From the NCBI GenBank assembly GCA_024231025.1, contig JAAEQW010000090.1, positions 21,490 through 85,489 on the forward strand: a stretch of DNA of 64,000 bases, in the 5' to 3' direction. The position numbers and the translations under genes were made by a program. This stretch comes from Candidatus Omnitrophota bacterium. Lineage in GTDB: Bacteria; Omnitrophota; Gorgyraeia; Duberdicusellales; 4484-171. The first letter of the stretch is position 1. Every line of letters starts with the position of its first letter. Positions 20,591 through 52,259 of the stretch are shown here, in pieces. The notes under the pieces were generated by a model. That model made no database searches and was not told the origin of the DNA. It saw only the letters and a list, made by a program, of their open reading frames with translations.

Positions 20591-21700
20591 ATGGAACGCT
20601 ATCTTAATAATCAAATACTAAAAGATCTCGAGAAAAAAATGGTTTTTCTTGGTGGACCACGACAAGTAGGAAAAACTACTCTTGCTTTACAAATTATCGA
20701 TAACAAGCGAAATTACCTCAATTGGGATATTGCTGAACATCGGGAGAAGATCCTTAAACGCGAATTACCTCCCGGAAACCTTCTCGTTTTTGACGAAATT
20801 CACAAATATCGTTCGTGGCGCAACTACATAAAGGGCCTTTATGACTTACGCCACAATGAACAAAAAATACTCATTACTGGAAGCGCACGCCTGGATTTGT
20901 ACCGCTTCGGAGGAGATTCCCTGCAAGGTAGATACCATTATCTCCGGCTTCATCCCCTATCAATAGCAGAACTTAAAATCACAAAGCAAAAAGACTTTCT
21001 GGCCCTGCTCAACTTGGGTGGATTTCCAGAACCATTTTTAGGTGGATCGCAAATAGAAGCTAAGCGTTGGTCGCGGGAATACCGCACGCGGCTTCTACAA
21101 GAAGATATTTTATCTTTAGAGCGAATACATGATATCGGTAATTTGGAGCTACTTACCTTGCGCCTTCCAGAACTTGTAGGAAGTCCTTTATCATTAAATG
21201 CCTTACGAGAAGATCTACAGACAAGTCACAAAACTATTACTCGCTGGATGGACGTTCTTGAGCGCACCTACGCAATCTTTAGGCTTCTCCCTTTTGGTGC
21301 GCCGCAAATACGCGCAGTTAAGAAAGAGCGTAAACACTATCATTTTGACTGGTCTCTAATTCCAGAACAATCTTACCGTTTTGAAAATATGGTTGCGTCA
21401 CACCTCTTAAAGTGGGTGCATTTTCAAGAAGACACAGAGGCACGTAATCTAGAGCTCCGATATTTCCGAAATATGGATGGGCAAGAAGTAGACTTTGTAA
21501 TTACCGAAGATAAACAGCCAATTCTACTTATTGAATGTAAATTGACCGACACTAAAATAAGCAGGCCGTTAAAATACCTTAAATCACGCTTTCCAAAAAG
21601 TAAAGCCTGGCAAATTCATGCCTCTGGTTCTAAAGATTATCAAACCTTCGAGGGCATTCGCGTCTGCCCTGCATTAGCATTTTTACGTACGCTCATTTAG
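20591..21700 (+). CDS. AAA+ ATPase with C-terminal DUF4143-like domain (COG1373 family)
   Basis: Walker A LGGPRQVGKTT and Walker B LLVFDEIH; a winged-helix/DUF4143-like C-terminal half typical of this family. Confidence 0.75.
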   Translation: MERYLNNQILKDLEKKMVFLGGPRQVGKTTLALQIIDNKRNYLNWDIAEHREKILKRELPPGNLLVFDEIHKYRSWRNYIKGLYDLRHNEQKILITGSARLDLYRFGGDSLQGRYHYLRLHPLSIAELKITKQKDFLALLNLGGFPEPFLGGSQIEAKRWSREYRTRLLQEDILSLERIHDIGNLELLTLRLPELVGSPLSLNALREDLQTSHKTITRWMDVLERTYAIFRLLPFGAPQIRAVKKERKHYHFDWSLIPEQSYRFENMVASHLLKWVHFQEDTEARNLELRYFRNMDGQEVDFVITEDKQPILLIECKLTDTKISRPLKYLKSRFPKSKAWQIHASGSKDYQTFEGIRVCPALAFLRTLI

Positions 21701-33403: not shown

Positions 33404-33898
33404 TTACTTTATGTTTCTTATGGAATTCTGAGCAGTATCATGTTTGTTTTTTAAAAGATTTGATATAGTTTGATATGCTCGGTTTTCTTTCTGCATATTT
33501 TCCTGCTGCTTTTCGCCAATTAAATTTGGATATGGAACCGGCACAGGTGCTGGAGGTGTTTTGGGTGATGGCGTTTTACAAACATTAGGAGTTGAATCGG
33601 TCCCGCCAGATGAATCGTCAGATGAATCGCCTGAATCACCACCGCCTCCGGCAGATGCACCAGTCGTAAGTCCTCCAAGAAAAGATGTGTCCGGCTTAAA
33701 GCTATTTACATCAATCCCCTTAAAGGCTTCACTTGCATGCTCTGAAAGGTCAGTTAAATGTTCACTTTGCTGCGGGGGGTGTGAAGCATCTTCCTTTGAA
33801 GTGCTTTTCTTTAAGGAGCTTTTTATTTTGTCGTAAACACCAGCTGAAGCAGAATTAATAAAAAACACAGCCACAAACATTGTTAACAATAATTTCAT
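33404..33898 (-). CDS. Secreted Gly/Ser/Asp/Pro-rich low-complexity protein
   Basis: Signal peptide MKLLLTMFVAVFFINSASA. The mature part contains GGGDSGDSSDDSSGG and PPAPVPVP tracts. Confidence 0.4.
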   Translation of the reverse strand: MKLLLTMFVAVFFINSASAGVYDKIKSSLKKSTSKEDASHPPQQSEHLTDLSEHASEAFKGIDVNSFKPDTSFLGGLTTGASAGGGGDSGDSSDDSSGGTDSTPNVCKTPSPKTPPAPVPVPYPNLIGEKQQENMQKENRAYQTISNLLKNKHDTAQNSIRNIK

Positions 33899-34018
33899 AT
33901 TTATAATCCTCCCTTCAACACCCATAGTATAACTTGCACCTAATTAAAATCAAGATTTTTCTCTCACAATAAACACTAACAAAATCAAAAAATTTTATAT
34001 TTTGCGTGATCCCAATGT

Positions 34019-37405: not shown

Positions 37406-37807
37406 TTACGTAGTGGTTGAAGATATTTTGGGTAAAACAAAATCTCGAATTTGTTTAGCCATTTCAATACTTGCAATAGCTTCTTTGCTGGTGGGAATAT
37501 AAAAATCATCGGGGTATCTTACTTCAACGGCAAAAAATGATAAATTACCCACGCTAAGGTTGAGGAATTCTTTATTTTCTTTCGCACAAAGTTCAATTAA
37601 ATATTCCAAATTATGGGTTTTTCCAAAATCTACGGCTTTAAAAACTAAATAGGCTTTCAGATATTTTTCAATAGCTTGCTGACAATGAAAACATATCGCC
37701 TCTGTAACCCGCTGTTTTTCTTCTATGGCATTCTCATGCTCAGCTACCTTCAAATCATTATCAGCTTTATCAACCCATCTTTTCAAATATTCCTGCTTAC
37801 CTGTCAC
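37406..37807 (-). CDS. HEPN-domain protein (toxin partner of the upstream MNT)
   Basis: All-helical 133-aa protein with an R-x(4-6)-H-like HEPN region (EVRYPDDFY). It overlaps the MNT gene by 4 nt. Confidence 0.65.
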   Translation of the reverse strand: MTGKQEYLKRWVDKADNDLKVAEHENAIEEKQRVTEAICFHCQQAIEKYLKAYLVFKAVDFGKTHNLEYLIELCAKENKEFLNLSVGNLSFFAVEVRYPDDFYIPTSKEAIASIEMAKQIRDFVLPKISSTTT

Positions 37808-38115
37808 AAGACTACTCCTTCGCCTAAAGCATTCCGCACGATACTACCTGGCTTGTCTTTCAAATACTCAATATCGTCTTTGTCTTTCACAACAACATCA
37901 GCATCAATAAGATCACCGGCAAATTTTTTACGTAAAAGTGTAGCCAGCCGAATTTTTTCAGTTATCGAGATATGCCCAGAAAGAATTAACAATAGATCAA
38001 AATCGCTATATCTTGTCTGGTCACCCCTGGCCCTCGAACCAAAAAGAATAACCTTATCATAATCAACCGCGGCTAAAGATTTTAAAATTTTCGTTTTTAA
38101 CTCTTTCGATACCAT
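37804..38115 (-). CDS. Minimal nucleotidyltransferase (MNT antitoxin)
   Basis: LFGSRARGDQTRYSDFDLLLI is the GS...DxD nucleotidyltransferase motif. Confidence 0.8.
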   Translation of the reverse strand: MVSKELKTKILKSLAAVDYDKVILFGSRARGDQTRYSDFDLLLILSGHISITEKIRLATLLRKKFAGDLIDADVVVKDKDDIEYLKDKPGSIVRNALGEGVVL

Positions 38116-38193
38116 ATTCCACCTCTAATTAGTAACATTATATCATGTTCCTTAACGAATCCAACTATGAATCTCAAAGAACTCAAAGAACTT

Positions 38194-41100
38194 TTACCGC
38201 TCAACCGGCAAAAGCATCTGGGTGAGTTCGCTTGAGGAGATGTCTTCGATTGAGGTAACGGTGAAGATTAATCCTTCATAGCTAAACGTAGGGGCGCCGC
38301 TTGTCTGCGCCCGCTTCACAAAAACCCCCTCCCCTTCGGTTTGGAGGTTGAAGTTTTTGCGTAGCATGTCGATGCCACCGACACCACCATTATTCTCAGG
38401 AAAAGTAACTTCATAGACATACCCCGAAAAACGTAAACTTCTCCTGCAATCTACATAATGTTGCCTTTCTATTTTAACACCTTCATATTCCGGTTGGCTT
38501 AACAATTCTTTTATCAAACTATCGACCTTTTTAAATTCCGTGCTTAAGCCATAGGTTCCAGCTACAATTTTTCCTCCTGGCTTCACTACCCTTAAAGCCT
38601 CCTCTAGTACCTCCTTAGGGTGGGATACCGGAAACAGATCAGAGAGAACACCAGTTGAGGTCATCACAACATCTTGACTATGATCGGCTAACTCTTTCGA
38701 CTTAGACCTTTCTCCCGCTGAAAATTCACCTAAAATGTGCTTAATCTCTCCTTTCAATTCCTTTCTAAAAAAAGGCTTCTTTAAAAAGATATCAGCAGCA
38801 TCTTTACTCATTAAATGCGCTCGAGGGTCTAAACTGTACGCAATATAATCAATCTCTAAAGTTGATGTAACTACCCCTAAACAACCTAAAGGATAGGTAC
38901 CATCTATCCCAACATCAACAACTGAATCACCACTTTTTAATCCGAGCCCATTTAAAAAACTAACTACCTCCTTCCAATCATCTCCCCCCTTTATGCGCTT
39001 AAATCTTCGGATTGCAAAATCATCTTTGGTTCGTTTTTTAATAATCACACCCTTAGGTTCCTCCTGCCTGGATGAACCGCCCCGGGAATGGATTGCTGCT
39101 GGTGGCTTAAGTGGTCTCTTGCCTTTCTTGGGCTTGCCGTTACCCACACCTGGCGCTTGGAGAAAATCACCCCGCCAAGGTTTGCCTGAAATTCGTCGAC
39201 CAGCATCAGCCGGAGCAGGCAAACCTTCATTTTCAAGTTTCAAGAACTGATCCTTTATCTCCTCGCTCATAACCTTAAGGTATTCAGGCTGATTGAATAT
39301 CCAGTGACTAGCGCCTTCAATTACTATCTTTACGGTCTCTATCTCTTCGCCCTTGCTGTTATGAAATTTCCTATCCTCTATCTGATAGGGAAATCGAAGT
39401 TCACCAGAAATGCTAATAATTCTTCTTAAATGTGGATTGTCTATAATCTTTTTTGCCTTATTCAACATCACCCCTTCTATTGCAACGATAGTTGAAACTG
39501 GATATTTTTCTTGCTCAATCGCCTGAATCCATAAATCAAAACCAGCGCTATAGGCAACAGGAATAAATGGTTTTTCAGATAGTTGTTTAGGTATTTTTTC
39601 AGTTATTTCTCTCACCAGCTGCTTGCGCTTAAAAAGGTATCTATGAATATCTAAGACTCGCCTAATTTCTTTAAATATCGCGTTTTTCGGCCATTTCTCG
39701 CTTCGTTCAAACAGCGAAACACTATACACCTCTTTTGCTTGATTTGCTAATAGCTTGAAAAAACCTTCCATATATTCTGGCAATCCACTCCCCCAATTTT
39801 CCACCCCATTCGAAACCACAAAAGGCGAAGAACTATTGGTTAAAGAAAAACCAGAACCGTCCGTTTTATTGATTTCATAAATATATCCATTAAAATCTAA
39901 CCCTTCTCTATAATTAACATAATTTGGTTCTCCCACCCTAATACCTTCGTATTCCGGTTGGCTTAGTATCCTTTTTATCAATCTCTCAACTCTTTCGAGT
40001 TCAGGTTTCATGCCATAAGTTCCTGCTACAATTTTCCCTCCTGACTTCACTACCCTTAAAGCTTCCCTTAGCGCCTCTTCGGGATTGGAATCCGGTGCCG
40101 GATCAGAAAAAACACCAGTTAGGGTTATCACAACATCTTGACTATGATCGGCTAACTCTTTTGACTTAGACCTTTCTCCCGCTGAAAATTCACCTAAAAC
40201 ATATTTAATTTTTCCTTTCAATTCTTTTCTAACCAAAGGATTCTCTAAGAACATTTCGGCAATATTTTCACTTTTTTCATGCGGTCCACGCTGCAATCCA
40301 TACCCCACATAATTAATTCCTAAGCTTGACACGACTAACCCTAAATAACCCGAGAAATGAACCCCCTCAACCCCAACATTAGTAATTGAATCACCGTTTT
40401 TTACTCCTAACTTATTTAATAATCCAACCGCTTCTTGCCATGCCCTTTCGCTTTTTATATTATTAAATATTCCCAAATCCTCAAGATCCTCTGCAGTCGG
40501 TTTATCCGCAATCGCACCATCAATCTCTTTAATCGGCATAATTATAGTAAATGTTGTGCCGTGGTTTTGGGAATCTTCTTCAATATGGCGGCTTTTGACA
40601 TTGATTGTTGCGCCTAAATCATCGATAAGCTCTTTAACTATTGATAAGCCAATTCCGGTACCAAGATTACCTTTGGTAGTTTTGCCTTCTTGAAAGATCC
40701 AGCCATCTTTTAGTTTATCTTCAAAGATACCAATACCATTATCGGTGATTGAAATGATTACGTTATTATCGGTTTGTTTTACACTTGCGCTAACTTCCCC
40801 CTGATAAGGCTCATCCTTGATTTGCTCACACTCCCTAGTCGCATACGCAGCATTATCAAATAAGTTGCTCCAAATAAAATCAAGCTGGATTGCGTTAGCC
40901 TCCATCTGGACACTGTCATTACGCGACATTTGCCAATCAACCTTTTTGTAAATATTGCGATACCTCTCTAACGCACTATACAGAGATTCCCCGACACCTA
41001 CTATTTTCATTTCGGCAGAGTCGTCAATGGCATCTTTTAGATCTTCTAGAGCATCCAAAGCACCTTGCCCTCTTCGTCTGACCTCCAGTATGGTATCGAT

Positions 41101-44100
41101 CATTTCATCCAACTTTCTATCCAACTTCTTATCATCACTACCAGCTAAGTCACCTTTAATCAATTGAAGAAAATTAATTACTTCTTCTTTCGAATCTATT
41201 ATTTCCTCTAATTGCGTAATTAAATCTACGACTATTGCGTAAACTAAAGATGGGAAATCTAACCTCACAGTTAAGTTGAATATGGCAAAGGTAGAGGCAT
41301 CGACGATGTTTCTGAGATTTGTTTTTAATCTTTCACTTTTTCTCGATAATTTTTCCCCTAATTCAATCCTTTTATCATCTTTATTTTCGCTTTCCCTTAA
41401 CTTTTCCAATACCGAATCAATAAGTCCAAAATCAAAAACACTAGGCATTATTCCATGTGAGTACGATTTTAGACCGATTTTATCAATTAACGCCTTAATC
41501 GTTGTCGGTGGATTAGGATAACCTTTTGATTTTAACTCAAGCCTGCTTAAGATAATCAAATAATCTATGCTATCCTCTGAAGATGTTGTTACAGCTTCTT
41601 CCTGATCGTACATATATTTAAAATAAATTAAGTACTTTTTAAGATAATCTTTCTCCTGCTCATCTAACTTTCGCTCACTTGAAATCTCACGTAATTTTTC
41701 CAGATTAATAATGCGTTCTTTTATAAGATAATAACTTTTTACTCTTTCAAATTGCTCCTTTACATAAACCATATCATCATCGATAGGATGTTTGGGGTAG
41801 AGTTCTTCCATGTAAGTAATTAAATCCTGCAAGCCGCTTTTCTCTTTGTCAGCTTCCCAATCATCCTGATAACCATCGGGAATATTTTCAAAAACATACC
41901 CCATAATCTTTGCTAAACTATAAATGTCCCAAGAAGGATAACGAGGGTAAAACCTTAATCCACTCGGAATAAAACTATCCATCCCTGAGCGCCTAGGCAT
42001 TGCACCAATCGGCGCAACGAATTGAGGATCAATCATTCCAACTCGCCTTTCTTGATTAACGATTATATTGCGCGGATTAACATCACCAACAACAAGCTTT
42101 TGTTTGTGAACGTTTTCGCAAAAGCTGAGAACTTTGGCAAAAACATCAATTTGTTCAACAACAGAAAAACTACCAAAAATCTCTCCCACCTCAAACCAGC
42201 TATCAACAACTTGATAACCTTCTATTTTAATTACCTTTTTTCCAATTTGTTGACCACCAGAGATATTCTCCTCAGTCATCTGAAGATTACCATCTTCATC
42301 AACACCCGCTCCTTCTTTTTTTAACTGTGAAAACCCCGGCATATCGAGTTGATTAAATTTGACCAGAGTTCTTAACTCGCGCATATTCATTTTATTTTCT
42401 AATGCCAGGATGCTTTCGCCTTCTTTCCTATATCCACCACCAGAAACTTTACAAAAAATTGCATCATCATCAGAAAGAGAATAAATAGTAGAATACCCTC
42501 CAACACCTAACACAGACCTACCTAACGTATTGACAATTGCATTGGTAAAGTACGGGCTAAGTAGCGGATCGTTTTTTATTGCATCTAGATAATATTGCCG
42601 AACTTGTGCAGCGCTTGTGTGAACCGGCAATGGTTCATGCTCTGAGAAAGTATACTTTATCGCAGCAGTTTCTTCTTTAGTAAGTTGTGGCGTTTTTAAA
42701 GAAGGGAAATTATCCAAAATGGTCCAAAGCCCTCTCGCACTTATGCTTTTAAAATAATCCGGTAAGTAATACCTGCTATCGTCTTCGCAAACCATTCCTA
42801 CATCTGATAAGATTTGTAGTGAATTATTTACCCCTTTATCATGTCCGATCGCTACCATTTCACGCTCAAACCCTTCAAGCGTTTTAGCCTTATCTTTAAA
42901 GATTTTATTCCTCATCATATACCCTAAAAGAACATCCGGAGTCACTTCCAAAATGGAATCAGAAACCGACCCACCACGGGGATGGTTTGCTGCTGGTGGC
43001 TTAAGTGGTCTTTTGCCTTTTTTGGGCTTGCCGTTGCGCGCACCTGGCGCTTGGGGAGAATCCCCTCGCCGAGGTTTACCTGAAACTCGAGGGCGAGATT
43101 CAAGAGAAATAGAACCGTTCCTATTTTCATCAACTGTTCGGCCAGAAGCAATAATTCTTTTGGCTTTGGTGGCAGAAAACATGCCAGAAGCAACGGCATC
43201 GCTAATATTTTGTGCGACTTTCAAGTTGTTCGGTAAAGAAATAAAATTGCACCCTCCGGAGAAATATTTTCGGTTGATGCGTTTGTGAGTTGTTGGGTCG
43301 CGTTCGGGTTTTATGTAATTGTAGACGCCTTTTTTGTAGGCTTCGACGTAAAGATTATAGATTTTATCTTTGGCGCCTTTGCCTTCTAGGTCAATGCCTT
43401 TTATTTTGCCTTGATCGATGTAATGTTGATAGAAGGTATCTTTGAACTTCTCTTTGAACCATACCGCAAGGATTAGGGAATGATAGATTTGACGCAAGCG
43501 TGCGAAATTCTTCCCGTGATTTACGTCGTGGGATATTTTAGGAAGGATTGTTTCGCGCATCAGGCGAGATGTTATTTCATTTACTTCCGGGGACACGTAC
43601 CGATCCCCGACTACGTCGGGACTTCCGGTACATGTCCCCGTCCGATCCGGTACATGTCCCCGTGCAACATAATCGTCCTCAAGCATTACCTTCATCGTGG
43701 CTTCGGTGATATAGGCGACATCTTTATTTTCATAGACTACGCTTTTATCGGGCGTGATCCAAACCTTGTTAAAGGCGTTGATGGATAAATCAGAGACGCA
43801 AAGTTTTGCGTCTCTACAGTCTTCATAAACCTTTTCCCAATAATCTTTTCCGGTTTCACTCTCTGGATAAGTTAAAGAAGACAAAAGCTGCTTCAGAATA
43901 TAATCCTGACCCAACAGATCCTTTCCTAGATCGGTTAGGCTCAAATCATCTGGAGCAACTCTTGTCTTTTCGTAGGGAGACAAGTTAACCCACAATTCCT
44001 CTTCAGGAAGGGTCAAACCTGCCAAAAAATACCGGATAAGACGGCTTGCTTCCTCTTGGTTAATATCTTCCTGATTAGCGGTGTCAACGATAAATTCAAT

Positions 44101-44445
44101 ATTTAGAGGATTCTCAGGGTCAAAGCGCAACCCTTTCAATACAGAGTAAGAATAATCCTGGGATAACGGAAGTAACTTAGTTGGAGATGGTAAATTATAC
44201 GCATGAGCGTGACTTATCGCGCCCTTGCCCTTAAGGCGCAGCAATCCCGGCAACCTGCCCCGATCGAATAGTCGGGGAATCGCTGCCGCCAATATTGCTA
44301 CCGCCACAAAAACAGCAATTACCCGAAAAGGTACAGACCCCTTCCTTAATGTAATTTTTCGAATCACAATTTGTCTCCCTACAAATAAAAAAGCATGGAT
44401 CTCGCCTCCCCAGGCATAAATCCATGCTTCCCTAATATATACCAT
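38194..44445 (-). CDS. Giant multi-domain protein (2083 aa). It has the N-terminal TM anchor and roughly 400-aa domain shared with giant 1. A basic Pro/Gly/Lys-rich linker is followed by a eukaryotic-like protein kinase domain (VVGDVNPRNIIV, about 41800-42900), a HATPase_c (GHKL) domain (about 40520-40950), a class I SAM-methyltransferase-like domain, an alpha/beta-hydrolase-like domain, a second copy of the linker and methyltransferase-like domain, and the shared C-terminal module.
   Basis: Continuous 6.25-kb ORF. The motifs read are: glycine loop GVGGYSTIY; catalytic D-x-N-P-x-N; N-box LFDNA; G1 DNGIGI; G2 GTGIGLS; methyltransferase motif I VVDVGIDGT and motif III VVKPGGKIV. Confidence 0.85.
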   Translation of the reverse strand: MVYIREAWIYAWGGEIHAFLFVGRQIVIRKITLRKGSVPFRVIAVFVAVAILAAAIPRLFDRGRLPGLLRLKGKGAISHAHAYNLPSPTKLLPLSQDYSYSVLKGLRFDPENPLNIEFIVDTANQEDINQEEASRLIRYFLAGLTLPEEELWVNLSPYEKTRVAPDDLSLTDLGKDLLGQDYILKQLLSSLTYPESETGKDYWEKVYEDCRDAKLCVSDLSINAFNKVWITPDKSVVYENKDVAYITEATMKVMLEDDYVARGHVPDRTGTCTGSPDVVGDRYVSPEVNEITSRLMRETILPKISHDVNHGKNFARLRQIYHSLILAVWFKEKFKDTFYQHYIDQGKIKGIDLEGKGAKDKIYNLYVEAYKKGVYNYIKPERDPTTHKRINRKYFSGGCNFISLPNNLKVAQNISDAVASGMFSATKAKRIIASGRTVDENRNGSISLESRPRVSGKPRRGDSPQAPGARNGKPKKGKRPLKPPAANHPRGGSVSDSILEVTPDVLLGYMMRNKIFKDKAKTLEGFEREMVAIGHDKGVNNSLQILSDVGMVCEDDSRYYLPDYFKSISARGLWTILDNFPSLKTPQLTKEETAAIKYTFSEHEPLPVHTSAAQVRQYYLDAIKNDPLLSPYFTNAIVNTLGRSVLGVGGYSTIYSLSDDDAIFCKVSGGGYRKEGESILALENKMNMRELRTLVKFNQLDMPGFSQLKKEGAGVDEDGNLQMTEENISGGQQIGKKVIKIEGYQVVDSWFEVGEIFGSFSVVEQIDVFAKVLSFCENVHKQKLVVGDVNPRNIIVNQERRVGMIDPQFVAPIGAMPRRSGMDSFIPSGLRFYPRYPSWDIYSLAKIMGYVFENIPDGYQDDWEADKEKSGLQDLITYMEELYPKHPIDDDMVYVKEQFERVKSYYLIKERIINLEKLREISSERKLDEQEKDYLKKYLIYFKYMYDQEEAVTTSSEDSIDYLIILSRLELKSKGYPNPPTTIKALIDKIGLKSYSHGIMPSVFDFGLIDSVLEKLRESENKDDKRIELGEKLSRKSERLKTNLRNIVDASTFAIFNLTVRLDFPSLVYAIVVDLITQLEEIIDSKEEVINFLQLIKGDLAGSDDKKLDRKLDEMIDTILEVRRRGQGALDALEDLKDAIDDSAEMKIVGVGESLYSALERYRNIYKKVDWQMSRNDSVQMEANAIQLDFIWSNLFDNAAYATRECEQIKDEPYQGEVSASVKQTDNNVIISITDNGIGIFEDKLKDGWIFQEGKTTKGNLGTGIGLSIVKELIDDLGATINVKSRHIEEDSQNHGTTFTIIMPIKEIDGAIADKPTAEDLEDLGIFNNIKSERAWQEAVGLLNKLGVKNGDSITNVGVEGVHFSGYLGLVVSSLGINYVGYGLQRGPHEKSENIAEMFLENPLVRKELKGKIKYVLGEFSAGERSKSKELADHSQDVVITLTGVFSDPAPDSNPEEALREALRVVKSGGKIVAGTYGMKPELERVERLIKRILSQPEYEGIRVGEPNYVNYREGLDFNGYIYEINKTDGSGFSLTNSSSPFVVSNGVENWGSGLPEYMEGFFKLLANQAKEVYSVSLFERSEKWPKNAIFKEIRRVLDIHRYLFKRKQLVREITEKIPKQLSEKPFIPVAYSAGFDLWIQAIEQEKYPVSTIVAIEGVMLNKAKKIIDNPHLRRIISISGELRFPYQIEDRKFHNSKGEEIETVKIVIEGASHWIFNQPEYLKVMSEEIKDQFLKLENEGLPAPADAGRRISGKPWRGDFLQAPGVGNGKPKKGKRPLKPPAAIHSRGGSSRQEEPKGVIIKKRTKDDFAIRRFKRIKGGDDWKEVVSFLNGLGLKSGDSVVDVGIDGTYPLGCLGVVTSTLEIDYIAYSLDPRAHLMSKDAADIFLKKPFFRKELKGEIKHILGEFSAGERSKSKELADHSQDVVMTSTGVLSDLFPVSHPKEVLEEALRVVKPGGKIVAGTYGLSTEFKKVDSLIKELLSQPEYEGVKIERQHYVDCRRSLRFSGYVYEVTFPENNGGVGGIDMLRKNFNLQTEGEGVFVKRAQTSGAPTFSYEGLIFTVTSIEDISSSELTQMLLPVER
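43587..43663. repeat. GC-rich palindromic element inserted in-frame in giant gene 2, translated as RGHVPDRTGTCTGSPDVVGDRYVSPE. Its left arm CCGGGGACACGTACCG is identical to the giant-1 element at 19411. Its right arm CCGGTACATGTCCCCG is tandemly duplicated.
   Basis: Direct reading. The identical 16-mer contrasts with the otherwise diverged paralogous flanks. Confidence 0.6.
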
Positions 44446-44537: not shown

Positions 44538-45260
44538 TTATATTTTCTCGAGGCAGGCATCCGACACCCATGCTACTTTACCATCGCTACGTTTTAACTT
44601 ATACCACCCTTGCTTATGGTCAAGAATTAAGACTTTTTGACCCTCGTAAAGGGTAAAATGAGTTGTTGCCATATCAAGTGGTTCAAACTTAGCTTGCACG
44701 TCTGAAGAAATTACCACTGCCTGGCTATTTAAAAATTCAAGCTTTGCCTTAAGCAAAAACGATCCACCAAATAAAATAATTACCAAAATCACAGCAGTAA
44801 AAATAAATCTAAATCGATTTACCTTATTAATAAAGCAAAAAGCTAATGCGCAAACTAAAGCAATAAAAACAAAAGAAAGAAAAACGCTTACCCCATCAAT
44901 GGGAAAATCACCAATTACCCTCATAAACCAAGGCTTCCGCTCAGTAACATTATGCTTTAATAACGATGATACATAATTATAATTTGCCACCAGATCAGCA
45001 TCATGCGGCATAATTCGCTTTGCCCTCTCATAATATAACACCGCCTTAGCCAATTTGCCTTGCTTAACATAGCAATTACCGATATTATAATGAAGATTAC
45101 CACTCACTTTTTTGAGGCTCAATATCTTTTGATATTCTAACAGTGCCTTAGAGTATTGACCTTGAGCATAAAAATCATTTCCACGCTGAAAATCACCTCT
45201 CTCTTGGGCATAACCGCTTAATACCGCAAAAAACAATATAAGTATAAAAATCTTTTTCAT
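44538..45260 (-). CDS. batE: BatE-like TPR protein with C-terminal SH3b domain
   Basis: Signal peptide, TPR repeats, a TM segment and a C-terminal SH3-like region (KVLILDHKQGWYKLKRSDGKVAWV). It is the last gene of the Bat operon. Confidence 0.55.
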   Translation of the reverse strand: MKKIFILILFFAVLSGYAQERGDFQRGNDFYAQGQYSKALLEYQKILSLKKVSGNLHYNIGNCYVKQGKLAKAVLYYERAKRIMPHDADLVANYNYVSSLLKHNVTERKPWFMRVIGDFPIDGVSVFLSFVFIALVCALAFCFINKVNRFRFIFTAVILVIILFGGSFLLKAKLEFLNSQAVVISSDVQAKFEPLDMATTHFTLYEGQKVLILDHKQGWYKLKRSDGKVAWVSDACLEKI

Positions 45261-47071
45261 AATTTAACTCTTTCTAGATAATCAACTATCTCTCTTAATT
45301 GATCAAACGACAACTGCATACCCACCTTATCAACCGCACCCGCTGCAAACCGAGCCATATCGCAAGCCTCAAACAATTGCCTCATTTTATCTATGATATT
45401 TTTGTCGATACCTCCTAAAACAGCAATCTCATCAACAAAATTTATGGTAATTCCAGCAGAAGCAAGATGAAATTTATCACCCAAATACTCCTGCAAAGTC
45501 TTAAACGCAATATTATAAAAATCCTGAGATTTGCCCGAAACCATTAGATGCCTAGCTCGATTGATCCCAATTTTCGCCTTTTTTGGAGCTTGAAGTCTGC
45601 GCGCATAACGACTATCGGTTCTTAGTCGTTTGGTTTCTAAGAAAACTACTGCTGCAACAGCCGCAATGAAAACAATTAAAAAATGAAATATTATAAATCC
45701 TAATTTATTGTGCAAATAATGATCTTTCCTTCTAAGTTGACCGACATCCTCTTTAATATAAACTATATCCTCACCTACAACATCCTTGGCATAAGTTACA
45801 CCGCCATCGCCCGATTCAAACATTTGTGCCTCATCTAAAATCGTACCGCCTTCAACAACGATCGCTGTTGGCTCATTAGTAATTGTCAAATATTCGCCCA
45901 CCTTAGGATTAAAAAAAGAAAAACCTATAGCCGGCATCTCATTAATCGTGCTCTTTTTAGGAATCACCACCTGCTCAAAAAGTTTACCACTCGAGGTTGA
46001 TGTTACTTGCGGATCATAAATTTTGAAATCATCTCCTAAGTTAAGATCGATCAAATTAACTGTTTTGAAATTTCCATCTCCTGAAACTACCATTTTTAAA
46101 GTAATCGGATCGCCAACTTTAACTTTTTTTGGACTTATCTCTACATCAAAATTAAAATCACCAACAGCTCCATTAAAATTATCAGGCTTACCGGCAACCG
46201 GTAAATCTTTTATTTCAATATTTTCTTCAGGTGCAGATAAATTAAGTGGGTATCTTTGGTAATTGGCAAAAAAATTGTCAAATATATTTCCACCAAAAAA
46301 TCCTGAACCAAAAAAATCATCATCAAACGCAGATGACTTCCTTCTTCGTTTTTCAACTATCAAGTTACAATTTAAACCTACTGGTCCAAAAACAATACTT
46401 CCTGAGCGCAAAGCAAAAACATCAGTTGAAAATTCAATAACATCATAATTAATGCCATTCATTCTTTCCTTGTATTGCCTGGGCTGACTAAAATCACCCA
46501 CAATGATGCCATCTTTTGGAATCTTTGGATATTGGATATCCCTTATCCCTAAATTATCGACGTAAAGCTTAACTTTTAGCGGTATAATTTCATTAACATA
46601 GGCTTTATTTTTACCTAATTCAGCAACTATAAATGCCCTATCTTCTAAATCATAGCTCTCTTGAGGTTGAGAACCCCCCCCTGATGCGGCTATTTTATTT
46701 GCAACCTCTATGTTAACGGGTAGCGAAGAATAGTCGATGCCCTTATGATTAATGGTAATCGAAGGAATCACAAAGCTGCCCTCTTTTAAAGGGATTAAAA
46801 TATAGTTGTGAGTTATCGAGCTTGAAACTTGCCCATTAACAATTGACATTTTGGTTGATGGTCCTAAATACCGCACGTCAAAACCATCAATTTCCGGCAG
46901 CTGCGGTCTTTCGATGCTTCCAATGCCGCCAAAAGTAAGGCTCAATGTTGCAGTTGATCCGATTGAAACTCCACTACGATCAACACTAGCCTCAAAGCTA
47001 ATATCTGCGGCTAAAAGTGTCATACTTAACAATAAGAATAAAAGTACAAAAAACTTGCTCTTCACTACCAA
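45257..47071 (-). CDS. batD: BatD-like protein (oxygen-tolerance operon; large exported beta-rich protein with a C-terminal TM)
   Basis: Its size, signal peptide, C-terminal TM helix and position between the TPR proteins of a vWA/MoxR operon match BatD. Confidence 0.65.
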   Translation of the reverse strand: MVVKSKFFVLLFLLLSMTLLAADISFEASVDRSGVSIGSTATLSLTFGGIGSIERPQLPEIDGFDVRYLGPSTKMSIVNGQVSSSITHNYILIPLKEGSFVIPSITINHKGIDYSSLPVNIEVANKIAASGGGSQPQESYDLEDRAFIVAELGKNKAYVNEIIPLKVKLYVDNLGIRDIQYPKIPKDGIIVGDFSQPRQYKERMNGINYDVIEFSTDVFALRSGSIVFGPVGLNCNLIVEKRRRKSSAFDDDFFGSGFFGGNIFDNFFANYQRYPLNLSAPEENIEIKDLPVAGKPDNFNGAVGDFNFDVEISPKKVKVGDPITLKMVVSGDGNFKTVNLIDLNLGDDFKIYDPQVTSTSSGKLFEQVVIPKKSTINEMPAIGFSFFNPKVGEYLTITNEPTAIVVEGGTILDEAQMFESGDGGVTYAKDVVGEDIVYIKEDVGQLRRKDHYLHNKLGFIIFHFLIVFIAAVAAVVFLETKRLRTDSRYARRLQAPKKAKIGINRARHLMVSGKSQDFYNIAFKTLQEYLGDKFHLASAGITINFVDEIAVLGGIDKNIIDKMRQLFEACDMARFAAGAVDKVGMQLSFDQLREIVDYLERVKL

Positions 47072-47907
47072 TCCTTTAACACCTTAATTGCCTTACCCTT
47101 ATTTAGCTCTTTGGTATAAAGCCCCCTGGGCTCGGCTTGCTGACGATAATCTTCTAACAACATTTGAGCCTGTTGAGCGCTCATCGCTTGGGCATCATTT
47201 TTACCTGAACCACTATCATTTTGCGCACCATCTTCTTTGTTTGATTCGGATAACTGTTGGTTGCGATTCTCATCAGTTTGCTGTTGCTGGCTATCGCTTT
47301 TGTCTTGTTGCTTTTGCTCCTTGGGGCTCTGCTTTGGCTGTGAGCCTTGTTCTTGCTGCGGGTTCTGCTTTGGCTGTGATTCTTTTTGTTGATCTTTATT
47401 TGAATCACATTGCTTATTTTCTTGTTGTTGTATTTTTTCCTGCAAGCGCTTAAGCTCTTCTTCCACTAAATCATAATTATACTGAGCATCTTGGCTTTCG
47501 TCATCACTTTCTATAATTTTTTTGTAATGACTCAGAGAGCGTTTTAGTAAATCGACTGCGGCGGTCAGATTGCTATCTTCATGCGCTGCTCCATGCATAT
47601 ATTCAGAATTAGCAAGATTATAAAATGATTTTTTTTGCAAATCTTCGCTTTCTGAAATAATTGCCTTTTGAAAATGTTCAATCGCACGAGAAAAATCTTC
47701 CATTTTGTATAACGCTGCACCAAGATTAAAATTTATTAAATCTGATTCGGGCCGCTCACTCAAGGCCTGACTATATTTGCTTTCGGCTTTGTCGAATTCG
47801 CCATTATTGTATAATACATTGCCTTGATTTATTTTTCCGCGTAAAGATGCCGCTTGAATCGGAAAAGCAATAGTCAAAGTAATTATTATCAAATAGACAT
47901 TTTTCAT
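47065..47907 (-). CDS. batC: BatC-like TPR protein with a Gln/Lys-rich low-complexity tail
   Basis: Signal peptide, TPR repeats, then a QQENKQ...QPKQNPQQEQGSQPKQSPKEQKQQ tract. Confidence 0.6.
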   Translation of the reverse strand: MKNVYLIIITLTIAFPIQAASLRGKINQGNVLYNNGEFDKAESKYSQALSERPESDLINFNLGAALYKMEDFSRAIEHFQKAIISESEDLQKKSFYNLANSEYMHGAAHEDSNLTAAVDLLKRSLSHYKKIIESDDESQDAQYNYDLVEEELKRLQEKIQQQENKQCDSNKDQQKESQPKQNPQQEQGSQPKQSPKEQKQQDKSDSQQQQTDENRNQQLSESNKEDGAQNDSGSGKNDAQAMSAQQAQMLLEDYRQQAEPRGLYTKELNKGKAIKVLKDW

Positions 47908-48902
47908 ATTTTTCTTCTTCTGTCAACAAAAGTATTCACCAGTAACAACATAAGAGCAATCATCAAAGGTATCTGAAAACGCTCAGTATAAAGCTTGCTC
48001 TTTTCTTCTTTTATATTGCGCTTTTCAAACTTTGAAAGTTTTTTCTCATAAAGCGATACCAAACCAAAATCGGCACCACCCGCACGCACATAAGCCGCCT
48101 TAGTGCTAGAAGATATGTATTTAAGAAGCTCTTCGTTTAATCTTGATTTAACAACGTTACCGTCATTATCTTTTAGAAACATTTTTTTGCCATTCTCATC
48201 GGTTAATTGTATTAGCTCACCATCTTGCGAACCAATACCTAGACAAAATATTTTTACCCCTTCAGCTTTAGCCTTATTAACAAGTTTCTCTAAAACGCTG
48301 CGATTGTGGTCTTCACCATCGGTTATTATTATCATAATTTTATATTTGCTTTCGCCTTCATCGTAACTTTCAAGCGCAGTGCTAATAGCCGAAGCTATCG
48401 ATGTCCCACCAATAGGAATAGAGTTTACATTTAAGTCATCAAGAGCCAGCAAAAATCCGCCATAATCAGCGGTTAAGGGGCACTGTAAAAAAGCACTTCC
48501 GGCAAAGCCCACCAAACCAATGCGATCGCCGTTCAATTTACTTATTAAATCACGTATCGCCAACTTTGAACGAAGCAAGCGATTAGGCGCAACATCACTG
48601 GCTAACATACTTTTTGATGTATCAACAGCAATTATGACGTCTAATCCTCTTCGTTGAATTGGAAGCCATTTAAATCCCGCTTGGGGTCGCATTAACGCCA
48701 ATAACGAAAAAATAAAAACTAAGACAATTAAAAAGCCCTTTAGCTTATGGTTACTCACAGAATAAGCAATTCTAGGAAGCAACTTCATATCAACAAAAGA
48801 GCTAATATCCTTTTTGCGTTTTTTAGCCGCCCAATATAAAAATATTACTACAGCAAATACTGCCCAAAACATATTGATAAAATAAAAATGACCAAATCTC
48901 AT
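47904..48902 (-). CDS. batB: vWA-domain protein BatB
   Basis: Two N-terminal TM helices and a vWA MIDAS motif (DTSKSM...TDG). Confidence 0.8.
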   Translation of the reverse strand: MRFGHFYFINMFWAVFAVVIFLYWAAKKRKKDISSFVDMKLLPRIAYSVSNHKLKGFLIVLVFIFSLLALMRPQAGFKWLPIQRRGLDVIIAVDTSKSMLASDVAPNRLLRSKLAIRDLISKLNGDRIGLVGFAGSAFLQCPLTADYGGFLLALDDLNVNSIPIGGTSIASAISTALESYDEGESKYKIMIIITDGEDHNRSVLEKLVNKAKAEGVKIFCLGIGSQDGELIQLTDENGKKMFLKDNDGNVVKSRLNEELLKYISSSTKAAYVRAGGADFGLVSLYEKKLSKFEKRNIKEEKSKLYTERFQIPLMIALMLLLVNTFVDRRRKI

Positions 48903-48903
48903 A

Positions 48904-49899
48904 TTATGGTAACACCCGTAAAACCGTATTAGTTAAAATTACCTCCATTAAAAGCAAAATTAAAGCCGGCAACAAAAACCAACTAAATAACTCCTTATGG
49001 CGCATAAAGCCTTTGTCTTGGATTATTGTTTTTTCCAAACTGTCAATCTCCTTATATATTTCACGCAGCGATTCGGTATCAACCGCTCGATAATATCTGC
49101 CTTCGGTCTTTTGCGCAATTTGACGCAATAATTCTTCATCCAAGGGTATTTCCACATTGCGATACGCCTGCCGACCAAAAAGATCATTCACCGGATACGG
49201 CACCAGCCCCTCACTCCCAACACCGATGGTATATATTTTTATACCTAAAGCCGCAGCAGCTGCCGCAGCCGTTTGAGGCGATATTTCTCCGGTGTTATTT
49301 ACACCGTCGGTTAATAGTATAATTATTTTGCTCTTAGCCGCTGTATTTTTAAGACGATTAACCGACGAAGCTATTGCCGAACCAATGGCAGTACCATCTT
49401 CAATAACGCCTATTTCTACTCTTTTTAAATTAGAAGATAGCCAATCATAGTCTAAAGTTAACGGGCAAACCGTGTAAGCTTTAGCAGCAAAAGCCACTAG
49501 ACCAATGCGATCATGTTCTCGCATAGTTATAAAATCATCAACCACACCTTTAACTGCATCTAAACGATTGCTTCTTGATGATCCGCGATTAAAATCTTCA
49601 GCCAGCATACTCCCTGATGAGTCAATCGCAAGGGCAATATCAATGCCCTCGGTTTCTAAATTGCTTATCTCAAGTGGCAGTCGGGGTCGCGCCAAAGCAA
49701 ACAAAAACAAAACAACCACTAGTAATCTTAAAAAAATAAGATTCTCCGCACACACAACCCTTAAGCCAGGTTTAAAATCTTTTACTAAATCTTTTGATGA
49801 AAATTTTAGACTGTTTACTCTTTTGTGGTTTCGCATCCATAGCGCGCCTAAAACAACAACGGGTACGAAAGCTAAAATTAAAACATCTTTAAAAATCAT
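48904..49899 (-). CDS. batA: vWA-domain protein BatA
   Basis: N-terminal TM, vWA MIDAS motif (DSSGSM...TDG) and a C-terminal TM. Confidence 0.8.
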   Translation of the reverse strand: MIFKDVLILAFVPVVVLGALWMRNHKRVNSLKFSSKDLVKDFKPGLRVVCAENLIFLRLLVVVLFLFALARPRLPLEISNLETEGIDIALAIDSSGSMLAEDFNRGSSRSNRLDAVKGVVDDFITMREHDRIGLVAFAAKAYTVCPLTLDYDWLSSNLKRVEIGVIEDGTAIGSAIASSVNRLKNTAAKSKIIILLTDGVNNTGEISPQTAAAAAAALGIKIYTIGVGSEGLVPYPVNDLFGRQAYRNVEIPLDEELLRQIAQKTEGRYYRAVDTESLREIYKEIDSLEKTIIQDKGFMRHKELFSWFLLPALILLLMEVILTNTVLRVLP

Positions 49900-50390
49900 G
49901 TCTTTAGCCTTTCGGAAGTATCCCCTATAAGCTTATAGGCGCAACTTAAGCTTTTTTCCATTTCTTCCGTTTGTGGATCGTACTTAGCAAATTTAACCAT
50001 ATCGCAATGGTTTAAAAAGTCCTTTAACATGTTTTTATTTTCAACACCAATACTGTCAAAACTAACAAGATAAAATAAAAATTCCTCAGTAGTCATTTCC
50101 GGCGCTCTAATGTCGAAACGATCTTCAAGATATGTTCTAACTATCAAAGAAAGTTCAACATAATAAGGCACAACACTTAAATTTTTATTTTTAAGTCTGT
50201 CCAATGCTTCCAAAGCCAAAACATAAGCTGGTATTTTTGGTTTAATATCAAGTGGTTTTTCTTTTTTCCGATGCTTTTTAATAATAAAAAATACGACAAC
50301 ACCTATTACAGCTAATATGATTAGGGCAATCAACCAAGCGTAATTAAGCCCAAAATTTATCGGTCCTTTTATATCTTTTAATTCAACCAT
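49896..50390 (-). CDS. Small membrane protein (DUF4381-like position in the Bat operon)
   Basis: One TM helix; its placement between the DUF58 gene and batA matches the conserved operon architecture. Confidence 0.45.
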   Translation of the reverse strand: MVELKDIKGPINFGLNYAWLIALIILAVIGVVVFFIIKKHRKKEKPLDIKPKIPAYVLALEALDRLKNKNLSVVPYYVELSLIVRTYLEDRFDIRAPEMTTEEFLFYLVSFDSIGVENKNMLKDFLNHCDMVKFAKYDPQTEEMEKSLSCAYKLIGDTSERLKT

Positions 50391-50391
50391 A

Positions 50392-51270
50392 TCATGAGAG
50401 TCTTTTTTCTCGTATCCTAAAAAATTTAATCAATTCTTTTTCGTAAGGGTTATCACTTCTTACATCAATCATATCTACACCTGATAAACGCAAAAGCCGC
50501 TTGCGCTCATTTATGCGCTGATAAGCTTGTTGTTTATATTTATTAATTATTTTTTTGTTGTTAGTATCAACTGTTAAAACACTATCGGTTTCAAAGTCAC
50601 GCAAACACAACAAGCCAACGCTGGCAAGCTCCATTTCACGAATGTCAGTAATGCTTATTGCCACAATGTCATGGCGCTTATTGGCTACGGTTAGTGATCG
50701 CTTAAAATCAGGAGCAAAAAAATCAGATATCAAAAAGCATACACTTTTTCTCTTTATTACTCGATTTAAATAATCAAGAGCCATATTAATATCTGTGCCT
50801 TTTCCCTGGGGCTTGAAATATAACGCCTCTCTTATGACTCTTAAAACATGGCCCAAGCCTTTTCGCGGCGGAATAAATTTCTCTATCCTATCGCTGAATA
50901 TGATGAGACCAACCTTGTCGTTATTCTTAATTGCCGAAAGAGCCAAAACCGAACAAAGCTCAGCAGCTAATTCACTTTTTAATTTATTAGTCGAACCAAA
51001 ACGGCAAGATGCTGAAACATCCAACACCAACATAACTGTCATTTCACGCTCTTCGACAAACTTTTTTATGTATGGATGCCCCATACGCGCAGTAACATTC
51101 CAATCGATTGATCGCACATCATCGCCAGGTTGATACGCACGGACTTCGTCAAACTCCATGCCTCGGCCCTTAAACACACTGTGATACTGCCCACCAAAAA
51201 CATCCGTAACCATGCGTGAGGTGGTTATTTGAATACGCCTTACTTGCTTTAATACTTCTTTAGGTATCAC
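50392..51270 (-). CDS. DUF58-domain protein (vWA-like partner of MoxR)
   Basis: Conserved DUF58 core with a vWA-like fold lacking a complete MIDAS; immediately downstream of moxR. Confidence 0.75.
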   Translation of the reverse strand: MIPKEVLKQVRRIQITTSRMVTDVFGGQYHSVFKGRGMEFDEVRAYQPGDDVRSIDWNVTARMGHPYIKKFVEEREMTVMLVLDVSASCRFGSTNKLKSELAAELCSVLALSAIKNNDKVGLIIFSDRIEKFIPPRKGLGHVLRVIREALYFKPQGKGTDINMALDYLNRVIKRKSVCFLISDFFAPDFKRSLTVANKRHDIVAISITDIREMELASVGLLCLRDFETDSVLTVDTNNKKIINKYKQQAYQRINERKRLLRLSGVDMIDVRSDNPYEKELIKFFRIREKRLS

Positions 51271-52259
51271 GGTACTTCTATTTCTTCAAATACTCTTTTT
51301 ATAATGCCTTCTGATGTTTTCTCTTGCGCTTCCGCCTCATAACTTACTGCGATCCTGTGCCTTAAAACATCGAAACCAACCGACTTTACATCCTGAGGAG
51401 TTACATAGCCCCTGCCTTGGATAAAGGCATAAGCCTTAGCAGCTAAAGTAAGGCATATGCTTGCACGCGGAGAAGCACCGTATTGAATAAGCTCAACTAA
51501 ATCATTTAGTTTATACTTTTGCGGATCTCTGGTAGCAAATACAACATCCAATATGTACTTCTCTATTTTTTCATCTAAGTAAACTTCATCAACTACACCA
51601 CGAGCACGTATAATATCATCGGGTGTGACTATATTCTCAACTTTTATTTTTTTATCAGTGAAACTCATGCTTTTAAGAATTTTGTGTTCGTCCTGCCACG
51701 AAGGATAAGTGACATTTACCTTCAACATAAACCTATCAAGTTGAGCTTCAGGCAAAGGATAAGTGCCTTCTTGTTCGATCGGATTCTGAGTAGCCAAAAC
51801 TAAAAACGGATTATCAAGTTTAAAAGTCTCTTCGCCTATTGTAACTTGACGCTCTTGCATCGCTTCTAGAAGTGCGCTTTGCACCTTAGCCGGTGCGCGA
51901 TTTATCTCATCGGCTAATATAATGTTAGCGAAAATCGGCCCTTTTTTAACTGAAAAACTACCCTCTTTAGGGTTATAAATGAGTGTTCCAATAAGATCTG
52001 CCGGTAAAAGATCGGGGGTAAACTGCAAACGCTGAAACTTGGTTTTAATCGCTTGAGAAAGCACACTTACCGATAAAGTCTTAGCCAAACCGGGCACACC
52101 TTCAATCAAAATATGTCCGTTAGCTAAAAGGCCAATTAGAAGGCGATCGATAAGATCCTTTTGACCAATAATAGTTTTTGATATCTCCATTTTTAAAGCT
52201 TCTACAAATGCGCTCTCCTTTTTGACTTTTTCATTAATAACCGTAATTCCTTCCGACAT
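51267..52259 (-). CDS. moxR: MoxR-family AAA+ ATPase
   Basis: GHILIEGVPGLAKT Walker A, ILADEINR Walker B and a MoxR-type C-terminal domain. Confidence 0.9.
   Translation of the reverse strand: MSEGITVINEKVKKESAFVEALKMEISKTIIGQKDLIDRLLIGLLANGHILIEGVPGLAKTLSVSVLSQAIKTKFQRLQFTPDLLPADLIGTLIYNPKEGSFSVKKGPIFANIILADEINRAPAKVQSALLEAMQERQVTIGEETFKLDNPFLVLATQNPIEQEGTYPLPEAQLDRFMLKVNVTYPSWQDEHKILKSMSFTDKKIKVENIVTPDDIIRARGVVDEVYLDEKIEKYILDVVFATRDPQKYKLNDLVELIQYGASPRASICLTLAAKAYAFIQGRGYVTPQDVKSVGFDVLRHRIAVSYEAEAQEKTSEGIIKRVFEEIEVP

Follow-up and report, generated by a model that had tools for sequence, protein, structure and literature searches.

The stretch analysed here, hereafter the window, comprises 64,000 nucleotides of contig JAAEQW010000090.1 (GenBank assembly GCA_024231025.1, forward-strand positions 21,490 to 85,489) from a Candidatus Omnitrophota bacterium. 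On its minus strand, at window positions 38194..44445, lies a gene for a giant protein of 2083 residues, in which a leader with one hydrophobic segment and a conserved N-terminal domain (N-domain) are followed by a long cargo and, at the other end, by a conserved C-terminal module (C-module). The cargo consists of a divergent protein kinase, a GHKL-type ATP-binding domain, duplicated methyltransferase folds and three orphan regions, interspersed with two copies of a linker repeat. All features of this gene given below are on the minus strand, coordinates are those of the window, and residues are numbered from the ATG at 44445 that yields the 2083-residue product.

The open reading frame (ORF) ends with a stop codon at 38194-38196, and its product is 100% identical to NCBI protein GY858_01490 (2057 residues), from a Candidatus Omnitrophica metagenome-assembled genome (MAG). 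A start at the GTG at position 44367, giving the 2057-residue product, is more likely than one at the upstream ATG, since the GTG is preceded by AGGGAGA and coincides with the NCBI start, while no Shine-Dalgarno sequence precedes the ATG; the closest paralogues, too, start at the position aligned with this GTG. The 6.2-kb frame runs without interruption through DNA of ~40% GC (38–42%), which excludes a chance ORF, and the GC content of the gene equals that of its flanks.

An N-domain and a C-module shared across Omnitrophota

When the whole protein was used as the query, more than 2,388 proteins matched, each over only 15–22% of the query, i.e., over residues ~79-407. This segment is the N-domain (residues 79-407, ~330 residues; 43225..44211), which was delimited by local HMMER searches and always found at the N-terminus of the matched proteins. 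Four motifs are invariant across the family (WVNLSPYE, DYxLKQ, LRQIY and (R/K)YFSGG) and all of them are present in the studied protein, whose N-domain shows 38–57% identity to those of 51 aligned members and keeps every family-invariant residue. The N-domain was modelled with confidence (predicted local distance difference test (pLDDT) 79.6, predicted template modelling score (pTM) 0.75) as a mixture of beta-hairpins and long helices, for which Foldseek returned no match in PDB or BFVD.

The C-module was uncovered with an iterated hidden Markov model (HMM) as a stretch of ~50 residues with the consensus pGGIDLnP..lnLqtqG...GFtPvIinI.Pit. In the studied protein it spans residues 2022-2070 (GGIDM...EGLIFTVTSIED; 38236..38382), 13 residues from the C-terminus, and matches the family HMM with E 1.3e-13. 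It was detected in 95 of 123 sequences (~80% of the members examined) and invariably lies 3–40 residues from the C-terminus, so that the C-terminal module noted in an initial annotation of the locus proved to be a genuine conserved element. Neither the N-domain nor the C-module has a match in Pfam, NCBIfam or PDB sequences.

Comparison with giant proteins of Omnitrophota-like MAGs, as the initial annotation had proposed, thus brought out a large set of proteins sharing both modules. Scanning species-representative genomes yielded at least 585 confirmed family loci, and the best 80 of these served for all counts of neighbouring genes, split genes and module pairings. Omnitrophota-type MAGs account for all 80, several of them per genome, and among the 101 N-domain ORFs that these loci hold, 58 have both modules. 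ORFs with the N-domain only or the C-module only were mostly truncated by the edge of the locus or were adjacent halves of split genes. At loci L053 (2520-7232) and L064 (5751-12991), for instance, an N-domain-only ORF is followed 42–178 nucleotides further on, on the same strand, by a C-module-only ORF, and these pairs are split or frameshifted family genes. Complete members range from 727 to 3535 residues (median 1519).

The cargo carried between the two modules varies widely within the family. It includes glycolytic and other metabolic enzymes (TIM, enolase, PGK, PGM/phosphoglycerate mutases, GAPDH, PPDK/PEP-utilising enzymes), signalling or modifying domains (Pkinase, PP2C, HATPase_c, methyltransferases), and also HEAT repeats, ABC1 with an M48 peptidase, radical SAM enzymes and glycosyltransferases. 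Similar cargo types can come in another order, as in paralogue P0069, where HATPase_c precedes Pkinase. Two further giants are encoded on the minus strand of the window, and the C-module is found in all three. One of them (9620-20428, 3602 residues) has an N-domain 41% identical to that of the studied protein, and its cargo contains a HAD-type hydrolase (residues 2155-2261) and a SLOG/LD-cluster4 domain (residues 2414-2561), most of the chain being without annotation. The other (55789-63909, 2706 residues) holds a transglutaminase core and many HEAT repeats. Overall, the studied protein is one of the very many members of a multi-copy family confined to Omnitrophota, in which the N-domain and the C-module bracket an exchangeable enzyme cargo.

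Ahead of the N-domain, the leaders of the family look like cleavable Sec signal peptides. Among the 117–118 leaders examined, the median length is 42 residues, with a median of 4 lysines or arginines (K/R) and 0 aspartates or glutamates (D/E) preceding the hydrophobic region. Beyond this region lie a Pro-rich break and an Ala enrichment at -7/-6, leading up to (L/F/Y)(N/G)LPxP(G/T), the conserved motif with which the N-domain starts. Of 117 leaders, 104 have a small-x-small site, with the A-x-A placed 4–6 residues ahead of the conserved LPxP start, and in 45 of 121 leaders the hydrophobic region is below the length at which a transmembrane helix is scored. Internal transmembrane-like segments are absent from 112 of 121 members, which argues for a cargo located entirely on a single side of the membrane.

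The N-terminal transmembrane anchor of the initial annotation corresponds to the only hydrophobic segment of the studied protein (residues ~39-58; 44272..44331), which is preceded by a basic n-region (IRKITLRKGSVPFR, 5 K/R within 15 residues). Next comes a basic spacer of 25 residues with 6 K/R, whose last residues, A80-H-A82, coincide in position with the signal-peptidase-I-like site of the family. Cleavage at this site is doubtful, because the hydrophobic region ends 25 residues before it and the spacer is basic. For the studied protein we would thus expect an uncleaved N-in/C-out anchor, an assignment less certain than for the family as a whole.

Enzyme domains and orphan regions of the cargo

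The kinase-like domain (residues ~641-880; 41806..42525) is of a divergent Hanks type, with a glycine loop GVGGYSTIY (residues 647-655), a catalytic-loop segment VVGDVNPRNIIV (residues 785-796), and K666, E690, D788, N793 and D806 at the catalytic positions. Pfam Pkinase did not match the protein directly, and RIO1 matched only at E 0.1; with NCBIfam, residues 765-866 matched the kinase part of LanL (class IV lanthionine synthetase, E 1e-8) and of LanKC (class III, E 1e-6), and the kinase region also gave weak matches to Bud32 and PknB. An exhaustive phmmer search of 1.84 billion representatives with residues 495-1185 retrieved 10 proteins, i.e., the protein itself and nine weak matches (best E 3.7e-8). 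Eight of the latter were scanned against Pfam, and all eight carry a Pkinase domain over the matched stretch. The ninth, P0125, was discarded as spurious, since it reflects a sevenfold match of residues 566-615 to an Ig/cadherin-repeat adhesin of the type IX secretion system (T9SS). A joint family profile matched PknA/PknB at E 4e-21.

In the alignment of these homologues, E690, D788, N793, D806 and D840 stand in invariant columns, and K666 (within FCKVS), in a column that is not invariant, was matched by eye to the YK motif present in most homologues. Profiles and alignment together confirm the eukaryotic-like kinase as a very divergent kinase domain in which none of the five catalytic positions is substituted, and the degeneracy of catalytic residues that the initial annotation had asked about was not observed here. 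Because the catalytic residue set is complete, the kinase is probably active. The domain shares with PknA/PknB and LanL-type kinases the G-loop, the Lys, the alphaC Glu, the catalytic Asp and Asn and the DFG-type Asp; unlike PknA/PknB-type kinases, however, it reads VGD for HRD and DPQ for DFG. It further differs from Hanks-type kinases in an N-lobe insert of ~70 residues, in its position inside a far larger chain, and in a divergence so great that Pfam Pkinase misses it directly.

The ATP-binding domain (HATPase_c, GHKL; residues 1185-1306; 40528..40893) was recovered by PF02518 with E 1.2e-16 (61.6 bits versus a cut-off of 26.4) and retains its N (NLFDNA), G1 (DNGIGI) and G2 (GTGIGLS) boxes, in agreement with the initial annotation. 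Histidine-kinase alignments from NCBIfam reach ~70 residues upstream of this domain. No HisKA/DHp profile of Pfam matched the protein, though, and where a DHp phospho-acceptor would be sought, ~110 residues upstream of the N box, no histidine is found: the sole one between residues 900 and 1286 is H997, ~200 residues upstream, with none between 998 and 1286. This argues for an ATP-binding domain that lacks a canonical phospho-acceptor and that, as read from the sequence, is not a classical histidine kinase or two-component sensor. Receiver, HAMP, PAS and other sensor domains were not detected in profile scans of the chain, nor does a cognate response regulator adjoin the gene, which is flanked by BatE and by an MNT/HEPN pair. 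The likeness to two-component sensor histidine kinases is therefore limited to HATPase_c and its three boxes, whereas HisKA/DHp, phospho-acceptor histidine, sensor domain and cognate regulator all set such kinases apart from the studied protein.

The two methyltransferase-fold domains, MT1 (residues 1312-1526; 39868..40512) and MT2 (residues 1801-2014; 38404..39045), are full-length duplicates of each other (E 1e-73), and both are homologous to P0044, a family member annotated as a methyltransferase (E 1e-23). PF08241 matched with 35.2 bits versus a cut-off of 21.2, in two stretches that cover only the C-terminal half of the profile (positions 54-95 per copy). Motif I is expanded to NVGVEGVH in MT1 and DVGIDGTY in MT2, versus DVGTG in P0044, and departs from the canonical E/DxGxGxG; no acid stands at the end of strand 2, where the residue aligned with the FDL acid of P0044 is G in MT1 and S in MT2. 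The ratio of non-synonymous to synonymous substitution rates (dN/dS) between the two copies is 0.48 overall, and 0.57 in the half that binds S-adenosylmethionine (SAM). The initial annotation of two SAM methyltransferase-like domains is hence confirmed at the level of fold and family, but the SAM-binding motifs are atypical and, judging from these ratios, under relaxed constraint, and SAM-dependent catalysis by either copy is doubtful.

Homology of the cargo was evaluated by local HMMER among 126 retrieved proteins, in addition to the exhaustive phmmer search, and three regions remained orphans. For the first, which precedes the kinase (residues 496-640; 42526..42960), profile and homologue searches found no family or homologue. 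The second (residues 881-1184; 40894..41805) is charged, has by eye a coiled-coil-like composition, and offers no histidine placed as a DHp phospho-acceptor. The third (residues 1527-1745; 39211..39867) had initially been read as an alpha/beta hydrolase from the strings AYSAGF (residues 1631-1636) and GASHW (residues 1711-1715). It yielded no match in Pfam, NCBIfam or PDB sequences even at E 10 and no homologue among the 126 related proteins, and its single-sequence AlphaFold model (pLDDT 42) is too low in confidence to judge a triad geometry. While profile searches segment by segment thus supported the kinase, the GHKL domain and the methyltransferase folds, the hydrolase identity received no support, so that, with the anchor included, four of the five initial domain assignments hold.

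Linkers, inserts and neighbouring genes

Two copies of a basic Pro-rich linker repeat of 43 residues, containing an RGD tripeptide, are present in the chain: copy A at residues 453-495 (SGKPRRGD...KPKKGKRPLKPPAA...RGGS; 42961..43089) and copy B at residues 1751-1791 (39073..39195), with 86% nucleotide identity between them. Neither the rest of the window nor the 80 related loci contain a further copy, and a dispersed element is ruled out, as both copies are confined to the studied gene.

A different kind of insertion is seen in the N-domain, where a palindromic DNA insert (hairpin z = -4) stands in frame at residues ~260-287 (RGHVP...RYVSPE; 43585..43666); in the structure model it falls within a loop of low confidence (pLDDT <50, model residues 241-253). 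The palindromic element, with GGGGACAYGTACCG arms, is also in frame in the N-domain of the 3602-residue giant (19408-19488), at a different position, and the window holds five exact copies versus 0.08 expected. Comparable-looking peptide inserts (VGARSPRPGRGNPAPT, VGANNYSPA) occur in the same N-domain region of other family members. These inserts look like small palindromic repeats tolerated within coding sequence. At the other end of the gene, a terminator-like hairpin (38190..38215; consensus match only) overlaps the stop codon.

Directly upstream of the gene, on the same strand, lies a complete Bat/MoxR aerotolerance-type operon (44538-52259, minus strand) encoding a MoxR AAA protein, a DUF58 protein, a 164-residue protein of unknown function, BatA, BatB, a TPR protein (BatC), BatD, and a TPR-SH3 protein (BatE). 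This adjacency is probably incidental, because no gene recurs beside family members: across the 80 loci no conserved partner was found, and the commonest neighbour, a receiver domain, was present at 10. Directly downstream is a toxin–antitoxin-type pair of an MNT nucleotidyltransferase and a HEPN protein (37406-38115, minus strand), and DprA and a ComM-like gene are also found on this side. Further away, a hybrid protein of 599 residues (53207-55006, minus strand) combines HisKA, HATPase_c, GGDEF and receiver domains in one chain, and a 173-residue protein with a weak Tox-PAAR-like match (E 1e-5, under the Pfam cut-off; 33404-33925, minus strand) adjoins two receiver genes.

Membrane side, rival explanations and known systems

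Omnitrophota are ultra-small bacteria, many of them apparently dependent on or preying upon other cells, and their oversized proteins are unexplained. For the family described here, whose bracketing modules, domain identities and residues are given above, we infer topology, export and the role of the two modules as follows. We favour, at a probability of roughly 45%, a modular cargo family that is exported or displayed at the envelope, and to which the studied protein belongs. Sec would insert the leader N-in/C-out and, since the cargo is free of transmembrane segments, the N-domain and the entire cargo would end up extracytoplasmic. The studied protein would stay tethered owing to its long basic spacer, and most paralogues would be released at the AXA site. 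The terminal modules would then be shared handling devices for the sorting, anchoring or assembly of the intervening cargo, whose site of action would be the envelope or material of a host or prey. The suggestion of the initial annotation that the C-module is an export tag fits both its conserved C-terminal position in ~80% of members and the Sec-like leaders. A more far-reaching version, which we put forward only tentatively, is that the N-domain and the GGIDL module may be the features recognised by a so far undescribed pathway of sorting, secretion or display operating throughout Omnitrophota. Such a pathway would bring polymorphic enzyme cargo (complete glycolytic enzymes, kinases, methyltransferase-like domains) to the surface or to host or prey cells, the studied protein being one kinase-carrying effector.

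Several points weigh against export. ATP, SAM or phosphorylated intermediates, on which kinases, GHKL domains, SAM methyltransferases and glycolytic enzymes depend, are unexpected outside the cytoplasm, and neither secretion machinery nor any other gene is conserved beside family members at the 80 loci. The topology derives from sequence heuristics, and in the studied protein itself, where cleavage is doubtful, the orientation is less clear than across the family. In addition, the third giant of the window has no leader or N-domain in its visible ORF, which begins 91 nucleotides short of the window end. Judging from L053 and L064, this gene may be split, with its N-terminal part upstream in another frame. 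Since it is difficult to see why enzymes that depend on ATP and SAM would be exported, substantial weight stays with a tether on the cytoplasmic face, although on balance we consider it doubtful. The hydrophobic segment would in that case anchor the protein to the inner membrane with N-domain, cargo and C-module all in the cytoplasm, the enzymes being concentrated at the membrane and the modules serving for docking or oligomerisation. Cytoplasmic cofactors would be at hand for the kinase, HATPase_c and methyltransferases, as well as for the TIM, enolase, PGK, GAPDH and PPDK of paralogues. The length and the 6 K/R of the spacer, and the C-module of the third giant in an ORF that lacks a hydrophobic leader, are also consistent with it, and a 2026 preprint interprets ‘TM-only’ long Omnitrophota proteins likewise, as membrane-anchored with their domains in the cytoplasm (bioRxiv 10.64898/2026.06.07.730766). 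However, the anatomy of most family leaders (basic n-region, short hydrophobic region, Pro break, A-x-A) is that of cleavable Sec signal peptides and not of N-out anchors, more than a third of the leaders (45/121) are too short in their hydrophobic region to score as a transmembrane helix, and the 5 K/R of the n-region favour N-in for the studied protein too.

Two other explanations carry less weight. The chain could be a decaying mosaic, left by extensive shuffling and duplication of domains among rapidly evolving paralogues, whose cargo is mostly degenerate scaffolding with little enzymatic function. The dN/dS of the methyltransferase copies and their atypical motif I and motif-II acid would be in line with such decay, as would the ~900 residues of orphan sequence, the palindromic element in frame within the N-domain, and the split family genes at other loci. 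Yet the 6.2-kb frame is uninterrupted in DNA of 38–42% GC, the kinase has all five catalytic residues and the GHKL domain its boxes, dN/dS is below 1, and no family-invariant residue of the N-domain has been lost, and we thus regard decay as unlikely. Even less probable, in our view, is the membrane-tethered signalling hub proposed in the initial annotation, a one-off assembly whose kinase, histidine-kinase-type ATPase and methyltransferases would work in concert, e.g., in a chemotaxis-like or two-component-like relay. Intact kinase residues and ATP-binding boxes speak for it, together with the upstream extension of the NCBIfam histidine-kinase alignments and the presence, within 10–12 kb, of the hybrid histidine kinase–GGDEF–receiver gene and of two receiver genes. 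These regulators are not adjacent, however, the immediate neighbours being the Bat/MoxR operon and the MNT/HEPN pair, and the proposal is weakened by the missing HisKA/DHp match, by the histidine-free stretch between residues 998 and 1286, by the lack of receiver, HAMP, PAS or other sensor domains in the chain, and by the lack of a conserved partner gene. The N-domain and C-module moreover bear unrelated cargo in thousands of paralogues, which points to a mix of cargo and not to a dedicated pathway.

The interest lies in the family more than in this particular chain. A large share of Omnitrophota proteins of 0.7–3.5 thousand residues follows one plan, i.e., leader, N-domain, any enzyme and C-module, and their odd domain chains reduce to one testable question, namely the function of the terminal modules and the membrane side on which it is exerted. 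Export of the family would mean that ATP- and SAM-dependent as well as glycolytic enzymes are delivered outside the cell, pointing to manipulation of host or prey; a cytoplasmic location would make it a new way to organise metabolism at the membrane. Whichever side proves right, two abundant domains are without an entry in Pfam or NCBIfam.

The initial annotation had considered the architecture undescribed. This holds for the exact domain chain, which in the search with residues 495-1185 is an orphan among the 1.84 billion representatives, but not for the kind of protein, which is already known: long, multi-enzyme, membrane-associated Omnitrophota proteins with HATPase_c, PF08241 methyltransferases, kinases and sugar-metabolism enzymes are described in two preprints (bioRxiv 10.1101/2023.11.21.568195; 10.64898/2026.06.07.730766, ‘Module 1’). 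The proteins reported there are of at least 10,000 residues and have many transmembrane helices, C39/S8 peptidases, an upstream locus resembling a type II secretion system (T2SS) and downstream PilZ genes. These ‘Archaeovorin’-type and ‘Module 1’ giants belong to the same phylum, likewise carry many unrelated enzymes per membrane-associated chain, and share a repertoire of HATPase_c, PF08241 and kinases, with HEAT, PPDK and PGM found in paralogues of the studied protein. Compared with the ‘Archaeovorin’-type giants (West-Roberts et al. 2023), the studied protein is of only two thousand residues, with one hydrophobic segment and no peptidase match, and its gene is surrounded by Bat/MoxR, MNT/HEPN, DprA and ComM instead of T2SS-like and PilZ genes. 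In the accessible parts of these studies we found no mention of the N-domain or the C-module, both of which appear undescribed so far.

Outside this phylum, three kinds of systems invite comparison, although the whole chain, the N-domain and the C-module gave no Pfam or NCBIfam match to a T9SS C-terminal domain (CTD), RTX repeats or a two-partner secretion (TPS) domain. The T9SS belongs to the Bacteroidota/FCB group. As in the present family, highly diverse T9SS cargo is framed by a Sec leader at the N-terminus and a conserved module at the C-terminus, and a genome encodes many paralogues; T9SS cargo lacks a conserved N-domain, however, and the C-module of the Omnitrophota family is ~50 residues long and matches no T9SS CTD model. 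TpsA/CdiA, polymorphic toxins and oomycete CRN effectors (PMC5289972) resemble it in that a signal peptide and a conserved N-terminal domain for trafficking precede a C-terminal part that is long, variable and often enzymatic. Unlike these, the studied chain has no match to a TPS domain or any toxin-trafficking domain, its N-domain is predicted to form helices and hairpins and not a beta-helix, and the family carries metabolic and signalling enzymes in place of toxins, along with a conserved C-terminal module that those systems lack. LapA-like adhesins of type I secretion have an N-terminal retention module and a C-terminal secretion signal. They differ from the studied chain in having no Sec leader and in carrying RTX and Ig-like repeats, neither of which occurs in it, but to our knowledge they are the only kind of giant variable protein with conserved modules at both ends.

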